From: a virus
Length of the DNA: 64,000 nt
Virus record (IMG/VR): IMGVR_UViG_3300025423_000009
Location: 32,001-96,000 of that record
Reading direction: 5' to 3' (one strand)
Position numbers and translations under genes: made by a program
The notes under the pieces: model-generated
What the model saw: the letters and a program-made list of their open reading frames with translations, nothing else
Database searches by the model: none
What the model was told of the DNA's origin: nothing
In this document: piece by piece, positions 1,414-42,172 of the stretch
Position numbering within the stretch: the stretch's first letter is position 1
Layout: every line of letters starts with the position of its first letter

Positions 1414-2616
1414 TTATTTATGAGAGTGAAGCTTCTTGAAACGTTTGAAGTCCGCACGAATGGCCGAAAGTTCCGTTTCGCGACCAATGATGGTGTTCTC
1501 GGCCAGAAACTTCTCGATCAGAGTGCGATTCGATTCCTCAGCGATGAGTTGAATCATTCGCACGTGCTTCTCAGAAACCTGTGTGGACTCAGTCTTCATC
1601 AGCTCGTCCGTGTAGTATCCAGTGATCTCCTCGGGTGACCACTCATTGGCCTGAGACTGACGACCCTTGAACCAGGTGATCAGCTTTCCTTCAGGAGTCA
1701 CGGACTTCGGCCAGTCCTGAGACTCATCCGGATCCGTCATCTCGAACGGACGATCATTGACCAAAACGGAACCGTACTTGACCGTAAGCTTATCGGAAGG
1801 CTTCAGCGTGACCATTGTGGCCAGAGTATTGACATCCATGCCTGATTGGCCGATAGCTTCTGGCACACAATTCGGAACCGTCTTGCCATCCTTCTCCTTG
1901 GTGCCGATGGCCTTATAGCCTTTCCAGCAGGCTTTCTCGAGACTCTCTTTCTTGATTAGATCCTTGATCGGAATGAGCTGTTCGTTCGTCTGTCCCGGCG
2001 TGACTTCTTTGTTCTGCTGAGTCAGCGTCTTGGTGCCCCAGTCACGATCATGGGAGAGCTCCTCGTTCTCACCATTTGCATGGCTCTGAGCGATCTGCTT
2101 GGCTTTCGCGATCGCGTTCGAAGATTGAGCATTGACCTTTCCGATCTGCTTAGCGACGCCGCGCTCCTTTCCCTTTGGAGAGAAGTTGACATGCCAGAAC
2201 AATCCATGCTGAAACAGGATGTAGCGGCCTTGATCCGTGCTAGCCTCTTCCTGACCAGGAATAGCATCGACGGGTTTCCATTCTAGAACCGTCTTAGCAC
2301 CCTCTTCGACTTCGCTTTCCGACTCATTGGCCGACGATTGATTCGGATTCTTGCCTTGAGCATCGATGAAGTTCTCGGCGGCCTGCTTGGCCTTCATGAA
2401 AGCCAGAGGCTGACCGGTCGGAGTCTTGAAGATCTGATTGCCCTTGGTGCCACCGGACGGAACAAACGACACGATCAGATTGCCGGCCACGTTCTTCAGT
2501 GTAAACTTAGATCCGTCCTGAAGCTTTGCTTCCTGTGCTCCGGTATCCTCGCTCGAGGTCTCCCACTTGAGAGTACCCTCGATCATTACGTTTTTGATGG
2601 ATTCTGTTAGATTCAT
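1414..2616 (-). CDS. Modular late protein with an internal duplicated domain and a CWKGYK...VPNCVP motif
   Basis: Two related ~70-aa units (L[K/E]W...AKQ[A/I]A) plus a motif common in T4-like head proteins. Confidence 0.6.
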   Translation of the reverse strand: MNLTESIKNVMIEGTLKWETSSEDTGAQEAKLQDGSKFTLKNVAGNLIVSFVPSGGTKGNQIFKTPTGQPLAFMKAKQAAENFIDAQGKNPNQSSANESESEVEEGAKTVLEWKPVDAIPGQEEASTDQGRYILFQHGLFWHVNFSPKGKERGVAKQIGKVNAQSSNAIAKAKQIAQSHANGENEELSHDRDWGTKTLTQQNKEVTPGQTNEQLIPIKDLIKKESLEKACWKGYKAIGTKEKDGKTVPNCVPEAIGQSGMDVNTLATMVTLKPSDKLTVKYGSVLVNDRPFEMTDPDESQDWPKSVTPEGKLITWFKGRQSQANEWSPEEITGYYTDELMKTESTQVSEKHVRMIQLIAEESNRTLIEKFLAENTIIGRETELSAIRADFKRFKKLHSHK

Positions 2617-7784: not shown

Positions 7785-7860
7785 TGGAGCATCGGATGGG
7801 ATTCGAACCCACGACCAGCACATTGGAAGTGTGCGACTCTACCAACTGAGTTACCGATGC
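7785..7860 (-). tRNA. tRNA-Gly(TCC)
   Basis: 76-nt cloverleaf: GCATCGG/CCGATGC acceptor, loop CTTCCAA, GTTCGAAT T-loop, U73, encoded CCA. Confidence 0.95.
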
Positions 7861-23755: not shown

Positions 23756-23830
23756 TGGCGACCCTACCGGGAATCGAACCCGGGCTACCTCCGTGAAAGG
23801 GAGGTGTCCTAACCGCTAGACCATAGGGTC
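23756..23830 (-). tRNA. tRNA-Glu(TTC)
   Basis: GACCCTA/TAGGGTC acceptor, CCTCC-CTTTCAC-GGAGG anticodon arm, GTTCGATT T-loop, CCA. Confidence 0.95.
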
Positions 23831-24581: not shown

Positions 24582-24656
24582 TGGGAGCAGGGGACGGAAT
24601 CGAACCGCCGACCTGGTGGTTATGAGCCACCCGATCTACCACTGATCTACCCTGCA
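24582..24656 (-). tRNA. tRNA-Met(CAT), initiator-like
   Basis: T1xT72 mismatch and A11-T24 pair; loop CTCATAA; CCA. Lacks three consecutive G-C pairs in the anticodon stem and has C73. Confidence 0.85.
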
Positions 24657-24746: not shown

Positions 24747-24823
24747 TGGCGCGAGTGACGGGGCTCGAACCCGTAACCTCTGCCGTGACAGGGCAGCGCT
24801 CTAACCAATTGAGCTACACCCGC
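24747..24823 (-). tRNA. tRNA-Asp(GTC)
   Basis: 77-nt cloverleaf, CTGCC-CTGTCAC-GGCAG anticodon arm, G73, CCA. Confidence 0.95.
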
Positions 24824-38690: not shown

Positions 38691-39134
38691 CTACTTCGTT
38701 TTCTTAACGTTGCCGATCTGATACTTGGCTACCAGATTCCAAGTTGGCTTGTCTTTGAACGGAATGATCTTGATCTGCTTGAGATCCAACTTCTGTGGCT
38801 GTGCTTTTTCGGAGTGTCGAATCTTCACCAGACCCCAGTCGTCCAGAAGCTGAGCGATCGTGTTTCGACGAGATAGATCATCGATTGAGAAGTCCGATGG
38901 CTTTCCGTCTAGCATGAAGAGCTCCTTGAAGTGAACTATGAAGTAGTATCCGCGCTTATGGAGCAGATGACAAGACTGATAGAGCGTGTTGACTTCCTTC
39001 TTGGAAGCGATGCCGATTCGAGTCAGCGTTTCACGTACCTTGAGAAAGTCGTCGGGCTCGTTGAGAGTTACCTCGAGCATCTCCTGAGGAGACCAAGGAG
39101 CAAGTGTGTCTTGAGATTCTTGTTGTGGAGTCAT
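38691..39134 (-). CDS. regA: RegA translational repressor
   Basis: PDDFLKVRETLTRIGIAS...LYQSCHLLHKRG.Y.IVHFKELF.LDG. Confidence 0.95.
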   Translation of the reverse strand: MTPQQESQDTLAPWSPQEMLEVTLNEPDDFLKVRETLTRIGIASKKEVNTLYQSCHLLHKRGYYFIVHFKELFMLDGKPSDFSIDDLSRRNTIAQLLDDWGLVKIRHSEKAQPQKLDLKQIKIIPFKDKPTWNLVAKYQIGNVKKTK

Positions 39135-39172: not shown

Positions 39173-39586
39173 CTACTTTCCACCTGTATCGAGTGAACGA
39201 GCGATAGCTTTGAGCTGATCATCGGAGAGAAGATCAGCGACCTGACGAGCCTTCTCAGAAGAGTATCCATAAGCTTTCTTGATTAGATCTATGGAATCGG
39301 ACGGCTCGTTCTTGAGCCACTTGGAGAAGCGTTTACGAGGACGAATCGAGTTGCGTAGGAATTCATACTGAGCTCGAGTCGGAATCGTTGGTCGTTGATT
39401 CATCTCATTGGCAAGCAGAATCGTATCAGAGAACCATGAGAGGCTGCGATTACACATGAAGGGAACATATGCCTTCTCCTCCGTCGTCGGATCGGCAAAG
39501 AGATCCTTTCCGCGGCTTCCTTCATTGATCGAGTTGAGGAAGTCGAAGAATGATAGTTTTTTGGATTTGGATTCAGTCACATTCAT
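39173..39586 (-). CDS. 62: Clamp loader small subunit gp62
   Basis: FDFLNSIN, Y.PFMCNRSLS, ANEMN, RKRFSKW. Confidence 0.92.
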   Translation of the reverse strand: MNVTESKSKKLSFFDFLNSINEGSRGKDLFADPTTEEKAYVPFMCNRSLSWFSDTILLANEMNQRPTIPTRAQYEFLRNSIRPRKRFSKWLKNEPSDSIDLIKKAYGYSSEKARQVADLLSDDQLKAIARSLDTGGK

Positions 39587-39735
39587 CCGATCAACATTTG
39601 ATCATTATTCCAGTATTTCATCATGTTTCGAATCAGAAGGTAAAGGGTATCACCCGTATACATGTAGCAACCATGAAAGCATATCCAAATTGCCTTCTCG
39701 GATATTACTCCGGCTTTTTCTCGATATATTTTCAT
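39583..39735 (-). CDS. Small hypothetical protein between 44 and 62
   Basis: ATGA-coupled to the gp44 stop. Confidence 0.5.
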   Translation of the reverse strand: MKIYREKAGVISEKAIWICFHGCYMYTGDTLYLLIRNMMKYWNNDQMLIG

Positions 39736-40685
39736 TTCCATTGAACGTTGGCCATGAGTTCGGTCAGGCACGCGACCGTGTTTAGCTCTTTATCGGCCAC
39801 AAAGACGTTTTTATATTGATAGTCTGCCAAGATGATGACGGCCTGTGGAACCGCCGTGGGTTCCGCCGTGTCCGTGATGGAGTCGTAGATCGAACGATAC
39901 ACCTGTGCTGAATCGACGTCGTTGTTGGCGACGACCCAGGCTCGCATGGTACGAAAGTCTTTTTCCTTCAGAGACTTGATGAGTTCCTGAATGCTCGAGT
40001 TCGAGAGTCCAACGATCGCATTAGCCGCAATCTCACCAGAGGCCGCATGGCGCTGGCACTCATTGAGAACTCGACGCCAGTCCGGAGCGTGCTTGATGAT
40101 GAGCTCGGCCAGCACGGCATCCGTAGCCTTGATTTTCTCGAGCTCGAGGATCTTCTTCAATCGCGTCATGAACTGACCGGCCAGACCGGCCAACTCCTTC
40201 TTGGTCGTGTTGAATTCAATGACGGCCAATCGTGAATGGAGAGGCTCAATGATACGATTCTTGAAGTTACAGGTCAGAATGAATCGACAGTTGGCCGAGA
40301 ATTCCTCGATGAAGGCACGAAGTGCTGGCTGTGTCGACTGAGCATTCAGATAGTCCGCTTCGTCGAGAATGACGACCTTGGGCCGATTCGAGCCGCCCAG
40401 AGAAAAGGTGGAAGCAAAATGCTTGATCTTGTTACGAAGCACATCGATGCCTGACTCTTCGGATCCGTTGATGAGAATGTAGTCACAGCCAAGTGCGTTA
40501 CAGAGAGCTCGAGCCACCGTGGTCTTACCTAGGCCGGCCGTGCCGGTCAGCAGCATATTCTGAAGTTGACCGCTCTTGACGATCTCATTGAACGTCTTTT
40601 TCAGTGAGGTCGGCAGGATGCATTCGTCGATCGTGCGTGGTCGATACTTTTCGACGAAGAGGAATTCATTTGAATTAGATGTCAT
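39732..40685 (-). CDS. 44: Clamp loader large subunit gp44
   Basis: VEKYRP, GTAGLGKT, ILDEAD, SRL, PDWRR. Confidence 0.95.
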   Translation of the reverse strand: MTSNSNEFLFVEKYRPRTIDECILPTSLKKTFNEIVKSGQLQNMLLTGTAGLGKTTVARALCNALGCDYILINGSEESGIDVLRNKIKHFASTFSLGGSNRPKVVILDEADYLNAQSTQPALRAFIEEFSANCRFILTCNFKNRIIEPLHSRLAVIEFNTTKKELAGLAGQFMTRLKKILELEKIKATDAVLAELIIKHAPDWRRVLNECQRHAASGEIAANAIVGLSNSSIQELIKSLKEKDFRTMRAWVVANNDVDSAQVYRSIYDSITDTAEPTAVPQAVIILADYQYKNVFVADKELNTVACLTELMANVQWK

Positions 40686-40692
40686 ATAAAAT

Positions 40693-40811
40693 TGGTCGAG
40701 ATGGCCGGCTTCACACCGGCGTTGAATCGAATTCGTCAAACTCGACGTTCCTAAGAATTCTCATCATCAGGCGTTCCTTCCCGCAGTCGCTTTCTACGAC
40801 GATGCATCTCG
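40693..40811 (-). ncRNA. 119-nt tRNA-like RNA with Pro-type acceptor and encoded CCA
   Basis: CGAGATG/CATCTCG + A + CCA; GCCGG-TGTGAAG-CCGGC T-like arm directly stacked; GTCG-TAGAAAG-CGAC D-like arm; enlarged centre. Confidence 0.7.
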
Positions 40812-40918
40812 ATAGAAAGCAAGGGTTTATTGATTCTACTTTAGGAGTTCTGCGCGCCTTGCAATCACGCTTTCCATAGGTACGCTCTTGATACGGTGGC
40901 AACCTACACCGTCGATTG

Positions 40919-41161
40919 TTATGCCGTATACACGGCCAAGATGGACTCGATTGGAACACGATAGGTGTCTTTGGAGACCTCAATCTGCTTGCCTCCGGCC
41001 ACCTGCACACGATCACCAACCTTGATCGGCTCTTCGACTTTTGAACCTACTGACTGAACGATCCACTTCCATTCAGGCTCGATCGTCACGAGTAAGTTAC
41101 TCTGCTGTGAAGCATAAGACGCCTCACGCTTGACGATGACATTCTTTCCGATAGCTTTCAT
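40919..41161 (-). CDS. groES: GroES-like co-chaperonin
   Basis: MKAIGKNVIVK...VQSVGSKV...IKVGDRV...ESILAV. Confidence 0.75.
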   Translation of the reverse strand: MKAIGKNVIVKREASYASQQSNLLVTIEPEWKWIVQSVGSKVEEPIKVGDRVQVAGGKQIEVSKDTYRVPIESILAVYTA

Positions 41162-41172
41162 GATATTATGTA

Positions 41173-41844
41173 TCAGATCGTTGAGGTCTTCTCGAGTGCC
41201 ACGAAGTATTCGAGCTTGAAGTCCTGATGAGTCCACTTGGAGATCAATTTGGACGAGACTTCAACGGAGTAGTCGCCACTCATCACCTTGAGATTGTCGA
41301 TCAGGAACTCCAGAGAGAACTCCTTGCCCAGCTGATGTTTCTCGATCAGCTCGATCGAGAACGTGTTGGCCGATGTGTCCTTGGGATCCAGAACGACCAG
41401 GCTCAACGAGCCGGATACTGTACCCTTCAGAGCGACGATGGAATGCCCAAGGACCGATGCGGCGCGGCGAATCTTGGAGAGCAGAGCATTCGTGACTTTC
41501 ACTTGAATGTCGGCCACTGGCATCTTGATCTCCTTCTGAGGAGTCGTGAGGACCGATGGATTGGCAAATCGATACTTCAAAGTCGTCACGTCTTTGGAAA
41601 GGATCGCGGAGTCTTCTTGCAGATCGATTGTCGGATCATCGATCAGATTTAATGCGGAGATGAACTCATTTAGATCGTAGACTCCAAAGGAACGATCGAA
41701 CGTTTCCGGAACCGTGACCGTGGCCATGATGTTCTTGGCCTCCGCGATCGTCGAGAAGGTATTGCCCTCCTTGATTACGAGATTGGGATTGATGGATGCG
41801 AAGTTCTTTAGAACGTCGAGTGTGAACTTGGATAGTTTAAGCAT
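41173..41844 (-). CDS. 45: Sliding clamp gp45
   Basis: MLKLSK.TL.VLKNFASIN, FGVYDLNEF, YFVALE. Confidence 0.95.
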   Translation of the reverse strand: MLKLSKFTLDVLKNFASINPNLVIKEGNTFSTIAEAKNIMATVTVPETFDRSFGVYDLNEFISALNLIDDPTIDLQEDSAILSKDVTTLKYRFANPSVLTTPQKEIKMPVADIQVKVTNALLSKIRRAASVLGHSIVALKGTVSGSLSLVVLDPKDTSANTFSIELIEKHQLGKEFSLEFLIDNLKVMSGDYSVEVSSKLISKWTHQDFKLEYFVALEKTSTI

Positions 41845-42172
41845 GTGATTTATTATTATTTGATTGCGGTTGTTGATCTTTTTCGGCAAATTGAAGATAA
41901 GCTCGTGCGTCGACGTAGTTGTCGGCATGAAACACACGTGCGGCACGTTGAACCTTGAAGGACACCATCATGAGCTCGACGAGCCATGATGGCATCGCAT
42001 GATCCAGGCGAATCTGATAGTGCTGCTGAATCAGAGCGGTCCATGCCAGACCGATGTTCTCGTGGGACAGAGTCGCGTCGCCATATACCTTGCCGCGTTC
42101 GGCAATGGTCGCTTGAACGACGTCATTCGTGGATTGGGTGTCTTTCATCGCTGAGTATGGGATCTTGGACAT
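41837..42172 (-). CDS. DUF6378-like protein (nucleotide-modification-associated helical fold)
   Basis: ERGKVYG...IGLAW...MMVSFKVQR...DNYVD...Y. Confidence 0.7.
   Translation of the reverse strand: MSKIPYSAMKDTQSTNDVVQATIAERGKVYGDATLSHENIGLAWTALIQQHYQIRLDHAMPSWLVELMMVSFKVQRAARVFHADNYVDARAYLQFAEKDQQPQSNNNKSHA

Follow-up and report, generated by a model that had tools for sequence, protein, structure and literature searches.

A tRNA-shaped, predicted non-decoding RNA element with a conserved fold directly upstream of gp44 in a freshwater T4-like phage

The tRNA genes of phages have come to be regarded as a countermeasure to host defences in which tRNAs are cut or depleted. T4-type phages additionally carry small non-decoding RNAs among or in place of their tRNA genes, of which RnaC and RnaD of T4 have, to our knowledge, had no known function for fifty years. 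The literature still gives no function for RnaC (species 1 RNA, 139 nt) or RnaD (species 2 RNA, 119 nt) (PMC3014915, PMC9697503), in agreement with a preliminary description of the present locus, which had named them as stable T4 RNAs without a known function. Acceptor/T-like structures also occur as t-elements in plant mitochondria, where they lie at mRNA ends within polycistronic transcripts and have been proposed as targets of the tRNA-processing enzymes (PMC1920247). Furthermore, the tRNA-like domain of tmRNA and bacterial YrlA (Y RNA-like) are non-decoding and contain an acceptor/T minihelix.

The element described here shares features with each of these systems, RnaC and RnaD being its nearest analogues, but differs from all of them. 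It is 119 nt long and belongs to an uncultured freshwater T4-like phage (IMG/VR record of 117,947 bp with terminal repeats, 48.6% G+C), of which a stretch of 64 kb, hereafter the window, was analysed. It is located on the minus strand, with base 1 at window position 40811 and the last base at 40693 (the preliminary description gave no strand), and its sequence, its fold and the consensus fold with its homologue in metagenome locus L083 all describe a tRNA-shaped five-way junction ending in ACCA (40693..40811). Like T4 RnaC, the element has a tRNA-type T arm and a terminal stem, but RnaC keeps the canonical GUUCGAAUC T-loop whereas the element does not, and the element stands alone, directly before gp44, whereas RnaC and RnaD are part of a tRNA cluster. 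A model built from the window and L083 copies (R1) did not match anything in the tRNA region of T4 (69500-74000) at E <= 10, and the folds of RnaC and RnaD differ from that of the element. The t-elements are the nearest mechanistic precedent for a processing signal, for which the element shows the structural prerequisite (i.e. minihelix, U(-1) and RCCA), but they are usually minimal acceptor/T mimics in organelles, whereas the element, which belongs to a phage, is a whole five-way junction in which a block of 37 nt is invariant and the CCA is encoded. The G3-U70 pair of tmRNA is absent (A3-U70 in the window, G3-C70 in L083), as is a conserved tag-like ORF, and neither the tmRNA nor the YrlA model of Rfam matches at the element. 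By the features that define each class, it does not pass as a tRNA, a tmRNA or a YrlA RNA.

The acceptor-like stem is formed by CGAGAUG (40805..40811) and CAUCUCG (40697..40703), both on the minus strand (as are all parts of the element), through seven perfect pairs that include C1-G72 and G2-C71. It is preceded by a U at position -1 and followed by discriminator A73 and the encoded CCA (40693..40696), which are invariant in both copies. The T-like arm GCCGG/UGUGAAG/CCGGC (40704..40720), with 5 bp and a 7-nt loop, is supported by the fold as well as by covariation and stacks on the acceptor without any spacer to its 3' strand. On the other side, a 4-nt connector follows the 5' strand of the acceptor and leads to hairpin 1 (40786..40800), a D-like hairpin of 5 bp (GUCGU/AGAAA/GCGAC) which is predicted by the fold, is identical in both copies and has a loop (AGAAA) that lacks GG. 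Up to this point the preliminary description proved accurate: the acceptor with its two terminal pairs, A73 and CCA, the directly stacked T-like arm (loop TGTGAAG, with T54 and A58 kept) and the D-like hairpin are all present on the minus strand. The gp44 ATG follows the CCA after 7 nt. Its 'oversized centre' without an anticodon stem, on the other hand, has to be abandoned, as the centre consists of two conserved hairpins in the consensus fold. Hairpin 2 (40768..40783) resembles an anticodon arm, with 4 bp, an 8-nt loop (AAGGAACG), GGA at raw positions 35-37 and no U33, while hairpin 3 (40723..40766), which is also supported by covariation, is a 44-nt interrupted helix at the position of the tRNA variable arm. 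Without hairpin 3 the element measures 75 nt, i.e. it is tRNA-sized, and in the folded model it is therefore a 75-nt cloverleaf skeleton carrying a giant, 44-nt variable-arm-like hairpin.

Folded as a single sequence, the element reaches -40.3 kcal/mol (z -2.2), with the terminal stem and the T-like hairpin retained. A strict geometric pattern (7-bp stem, stacked 5-bp/7-nt hairpin and NCCA) matches only twice in the 64-kb window, at the element and at a true tRNA-Glu, compared to 0.01 chance matches per window in a first-order Markov simulation (1.5 when CCA is omitted), a figure that is suggestive only, as the pattern was defined post hoc, after the element had been seen. An alternative pairing of the 5' flank that would disrupt the acceptor (GCUUUCUA/UAGAAAGC) had also been proposed; the window does allow it, but L083 lacks the 5' partner, and the pairing is therefore probably fortuitous.

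The decisive evidence that the fold is real comes from the compensatory changes in L083, a short contig that contains the sole homologue found (1374-1493, 83% identical). In this copy, too, 7 nt separate the CCA from the gp44 ATG. The similarity starts exactly at acceptor base 1, upstream of which the two loci are unrelated, while the trailer and the first gp44 codons are identical. RNAalifold yields one consensus fold of 34 pairs, all of which can be formed in both copies, and the L083 copy adopts the same fold on its own (-44.1 kcal/mol). Eight pairs show compensatory double changes (three in the acceptor, four in hairpin 3 and one in the T arm) and two further pairs shift to or from G-U. 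In the acceptor, three of the seven pairs are doubly changed and one goes from C-G to U-G; in hairpin 3 the four compensatory pairs are spread over two of its helices, with one 1-nt indel in the apical loop; and the closing pair of the T arm is G-C in the window and U-A in L083. Hairpin 2 has no double change (three pairs are invariant and one goes from G-U to G-C), and hairpin 1, being identical, gives no covariation information. In total, 18 of the 24 substitutions between the copies fall on paired bases without breaking a single pair, whereas not one of 200,000 random mutants carrying as many substitutions retained every pair, and control structures shifted by 1-3 columns gave only 0-1 compensatory pairs and 19-47% pairing. 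The five G-U pairs of the element are compatible with the gene-sense strand only. Covariation in a homologue, which had been set beforehand as the refutation test, is thus present (8 compensatory pairs, 34/34 pairs kept), and, as far as two independent sequences (window and L083) can tell, the fold is real and under selection.

The substitutions are not evenly distributed: hairpins 1 and 2 together lie in an invariant 37-nt block (40806-40770), while the rest of the element differs at ~29% of positions. This block could reflect recent recombination instead of constraint. The phage of the window is also represented by 13 strain variants, in which gp44 is 98-100% identical.

As in a canonical tRNA, the element has an acceptor of 7 bp stacked coaxially on a T stem of 5 bp (with a loop of 7 nt), a discriminator and CCA. 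The T-loop, however, reads UGUGAAG (UGCAAAG in L083) and retains U54, R57 and A58 but not U55/C56, the D-like loop AGAAA lacks G18-G19, and in the anticodon-like arm the stem is 4 bp long and the loop, of 8 nt, has an A in place of U33. Because U33, a 5-bp/7-nt anticodon arm, U55/C56 and G18G19 are all lacking, the element cannot decode as a normal tRNA does. ARAGORN identified four true tRNAs elsewhere in the window, none at the element, and no tmRNA, while Rfam gave nothing at the element at the gathering threshold, with its tRNA model (RF00005) failing to match even at E <= 10. The preliminary description had expected precisely this silence of the standard detectors, and its view of a tRNA-shaped RNA that does not decode is upheld by both the detectors and the missing decoding features. 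The absence of U55/C56 from the T-loop and of GG from the D-like loop also makes the tRNA elbow doubtful, and the target of the specificity domain of RNase P may consequently fail to form.

The true tRNAs of this genome provide a reference for the 3' end. There are five (Gly, Glu, Met, Asp and Thr; window 7785-7860, 23756-23830, 24582-24656 and 24747-24823 on the minus strand, and C1:15515-15590 of the genome), all with an encoded CCA, and none of them is a tRNA-Pro. Of the four that were checked, three (Gly, Glu, Met) have (A)UUU after the CCA, like the element, and the fourth, tRNA-Asp, has UAUG.

On the minus strand the genes are ordered gp45 (sliding clamp, 41173-41850), an 80-aa ORF (40919..41161), a 233-nt gap, gp44 (clamp-loader large subunit, 39732..40685), gp62 (39173-39586) and RegA (translational repressor, 38691-39134; PF01818, 152 bits), the latter following gp62 as it does in T4. 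The gap is made up of a 107-nt spacer (40812..40918) that is not conserved in L083, followed by the element as its last 119 nt, up to the 7 nt that separate CCA from the gp44 ATG at 40685. The 80-aa ORF is weakly Cpn10/GroES-like (Pfam E = 0.0068, under the curated cut-off), is conserved in loci L001, L002, L082 and L083, and may be a gp31-like co-chaperonin. A search of the minus strand around the element gave no convincing promoter or terminator (the spacer contains TAGAAT, without a usable -35 hexamer), and no promoter is evident between CCA and the gp44 AUG. The A+U-rich trailer AUUUUAU together with the AUG (40683..40692) is identical in L083. In T4, RegA operators are A+U-rich, unstructured and span the AUG, that of gene 44 being AAAUUAUGAUU (PMC3014915), and by analogy the AUUUUAU-AUG leader of gp44 resembles such an operator.

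Public gene calls have gp44 start at the TTG at 40739, 54 nt into the element, which gives a protein of 335 aa (39732-40739, minus strand). The true start is the ATG at 40685 (317 aa), with relatives starting at or near the corresponding position, and the annotation is hereby corrected, as gene callers stretch gp44 by 18 codons into the element. In five of seven 335-residue gp44 strain variants the false extension reads TTS for TNS, which corresponds to an A-to-C SNP (minus strand) at 40732 in hairpin 3. This is base 80 of the element, paired in the fold with U55 (window 40757), for which a matching G is predicted in these variants.

Comparison of related loci shows that the region between gp45 and gp44 has variable contents. 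The element is absent from L001, L002, L082 and L164; the gap at its position measures 1 nt in L002 and L082 (gp44 identity 82-83%) and 34 nt in L164, while L001 (gp44 82% identity) has a 77-aa Lar restriction-alleviation protein in the slot (L001:2241-2474, plus strand; PF14354, E = 7.8e-8), between the GroES-like ORF and gp44. The presence of a Lar gene indicates that the slot collects accessory or anti-defence cargo. In DNA identity L083 is very close to L002 (96% on the gp45 side, 93% in gp44) compared to 73-79% with the window for the same genes, and yet the element is common to L083 and the window and absent from L002, which points to gain or loss by recombination in a hot spot. True tRNA genes are found upstream of gp44 on the same strand in 14 of 160 related loci (some of which are redundant between the two collections), most of them no farther away than ~600 nt, and eight no farther than 200 nt; tRNA-Pro(UGG), tRNA-Asn and tRNA-Leu lie 57, 40 and 43 nt from the gp44 ATG, respectively. 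Judged from the gene content of these loci, the slot is a recombination hot spot that holds tRNAs, small ORFs and Lar, the element is accessory, and it appears to be dispensable for gp44.

Two further observations concern this slot. L083 carries a hydrophobic, membrane-like ORF of 50 aa without a Pfam match between the GroES-like ORF and the element (L083:1216-1368, plus strand), which is absent from both the window and L002. In addition, a GC-rich hairpin (GGTGAGGTG...CACCTCAC) directly precedes tRNA-Pro in two relatives (L073:2328-2352 and L136:1328-1352), with the stem kept and a different loop.

With moderate confidence, we propose that the element is an accessory, non-decoding RNA derived from a tRNA (probably tRNA-Pro) which is excised by the enzymes of tRNA maturation, and that the cut at the same time defines where the gp44 mRNA begins. 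Its transcription, processing, stability and function in trans are what we infer. The parts that these enzymes read would have been retained (the 12-bp acceptor/T minihelix, U(-1), A73 with CCA and the A+U-rich trailer), while the decoding parts would have been lost and the 44-nt variable-arm-like hairpin gained. Transcription would proceed by read-through from upstream, after which host RNase P would cleave before C1 and RNase E and 3' exonucleases would trim back to CCA, releasing a stable non-decoding RNA of ~119 nt that would resemble T4 RnaC. The same cut would also sever the upstream cistron, and the leader left on the gp44 mRNA would be very short, A+U-rich and RegA-operator-like. The invariance of the 37-nt block (D-like plus anticodon-like hairpin) suggests a specific binding partner for the released RNA, which would act in trans. 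The element represents a second case of a tRNA-shaped RNA in T4-type phages, unrelated to those of T4: it is non-decoding, selected for its fold and located in a tRNA slot, which suggests that phages repeatedly convert tRNA genes to other uses. Being short, with sharp predicted ends, it could serve as a tractable model for tRNA mimics.

Because just 7 nt separate the CCA from the start codon of gp44, without an evident promoter among them, excision would leave gp44 almost leaderless, which could favour a purely cis-acting role, i.e. that of a 5' leader of the gp44 mRNA that acts as stabiliser, translational operator or processing signal, with a tRNA-binding protein or RNase P acting on the uncut mRNA. 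In that case the element would not give rise to a stable RNA with its own function. There is precedent for tRNA mimicry in such a leader, as ThrRS acts on the leader of thrS. Both the t-elements (PMC1920247) and the tRNA-like yjdF leader (PMC9142559) are precedents as well. The distance of exactly 7 nt in both copies, the identical trailer and first codons, the lack of a visible promoter between the element and gp44 and the likeness of the trailer to RegA operators, with RegA encoded nearby, all fit a leader. Very close relatives, however, express gp44 without the element (1-nt gap in L002 and L082, 34-nt gap in L164), the encoded ACCA and the invariant two-hairpin block of 37 nt exceed the needs of a processing signal, and the slot is otherwise occupied by free-standing tRNA genes. 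A role in cis only is the main alternative, but on the whole unlikely.

The bacterial proline identity set comprises G72, A73, G35, G36, position 37, G15:C48, U17a and G49 (PMC9976931), which confirms the earlier statement that G72 and A73 are bacterial proline determinants, and both are invariant in the window and L083. The element would keep determinants at both ends of tRNA-Pro if, besides G72 and A73, the invariant GGA at raw positions 35-37 can be equated with G35-G36-A37; this GGA lies within a non-canonical 8-nt loop, compared to CUUGGAA in the tRNA-Pro of relatives. At position 1, the C of the window is replaced by U in L083. The remainder of the set (G15:C48, U17a and G49) is not found, as the element has no equivalent D-loop or variable-loop context and the G that the window has at position 49 is U in L083. 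The likeness to the tRNA-Pro(UGG) genes of four relatives (L073, L136, L142 and L160) extends to slot, strand, C1-G72 (window copy), A73, CCA, A+U-rich trailer, 7-bp acceptor, 5-bp/7-nt T arm and GGAA at the raw positions of G35 G36 A37 A38. Unlike these genes, the element has a 44-nt hairpin instead of a 5-nt variable loop, an anticodon-like arm of 4 bp and 8 nt without U33, a D-like loop without GG and a T-loop without U55/C56, and it is missed by ARAGORN and Rfam.

R1 gives 149 bits at the element, and its full-length matches beyond the two element copies comprise all four tRNA-Pro(UGG) genes (17.9-22.6 bits) and one tRNA-Met, with no match to any other tRNA in the gp44 loci, the window or T4. 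A further weak full-length match within coding sequence (window 1643-1770, minus strand; 23.2 bits, E = 0.002) is probably due to chance. Based on the synteny of the slot, the geometry and these weak R1 scores (17-23 bits), the element probably descends from a tRNA, likely tRNA-Pro, albeit without clear sequence homology. That it is in addition a proline-chargeable, non-decoding tRNA mimic, carried as accessory cargo in the hot spot where L001 has Lar, and that it acts in trans, either supplying the phage with prolyl groups of its own or serving as a decoy or sponge for a host factor that binds or cuts tRNA (ProRS, EF-Tu or a tRNA-targeting defence nuclease), is unlikely.

The genome of 118 kb contains a single copy, by which a repeat or multicopy mobile element is ruled out, and L083 is the only other copy that R1 finds over 240 gp44 loci; the records behind L001 and L002 contain none. 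Neither blastn against 50,697 phage records nor exact and degenerate pattern scans of IMG/VR nor a pattern scan of GTDB genomes yielded a further copy. The failure of tRNA models to detect the element would also be expected if it were another kind of structured RNA, such as an aptamer for a ligand or protein that is closed by a P1 stem, in which case the resemblance to tRNA would be convergent or coincidental. A multi-way junction closed by a terminal stem and placed directly before a start codon is a layout typical of translational riboswitches, and the invariant loops would fit a binding pocket. However, Rfam returns a single match at E <= 10, to a snoRNA (13.8 bits), which is due to chance, and the 7+5-bp stacking, the 7-nt loop, A73-CCA, the tRNA-type trailer and the tRNA slot would all have to be coincidence, which makes a structured RNA of another kind improbable.

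The loss of canonical D-loop, T-loop and anticodon-loop features, together with the patchy presence among close relatives, could also be read as the decay of a functionless tRNA pseudogene, but neutral decay breaks helices, whereas here 34/34 pairs survive 24 substitutions and eight pairs are compensatory, some of them in a hairpin found in no tRNA, and decay is accordingly very improbable. Frameshift-suppressor mutants of tRNA-Pro read four-base codons, and an aberrant tRNA-Pro that decodes CCU or four bases through an anticodon-like AGG in its 8-nt loop would match the bacterial proline determinants (G72, A73 and GGA at raw 35-37), the 8-nt loop and a genome without another tRNA-Pro, but lacking U33, U55/C56 and G18G19, with a stem of 4 bp, and rejected by ARAGORN and Rfam, it is the least credible reading of all.

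Three other candidates at the element were rejected. A small sense ORF after an AAGGA motif is 18 codons long in the window and 10 codons long in L083, with different peptides and a broken frame, and an antisense ORF of 66 aa (40679-40879, plus strand) loses its frame in L083; because both lose their frame between the copies, the element is judged to have no coding potential. A hammerhead-like CUGAUGA is CCGAUGA in L083, and no Rfam ribozyme matches. Genome-wide, SD-like motifs precede 18 of 150 long ORFs (~12%), which suggests a host with weak Shine-Dalgarno use, and T4-type late-promoter motifs (TATAAATA) are found just 5' of several long ORFs.
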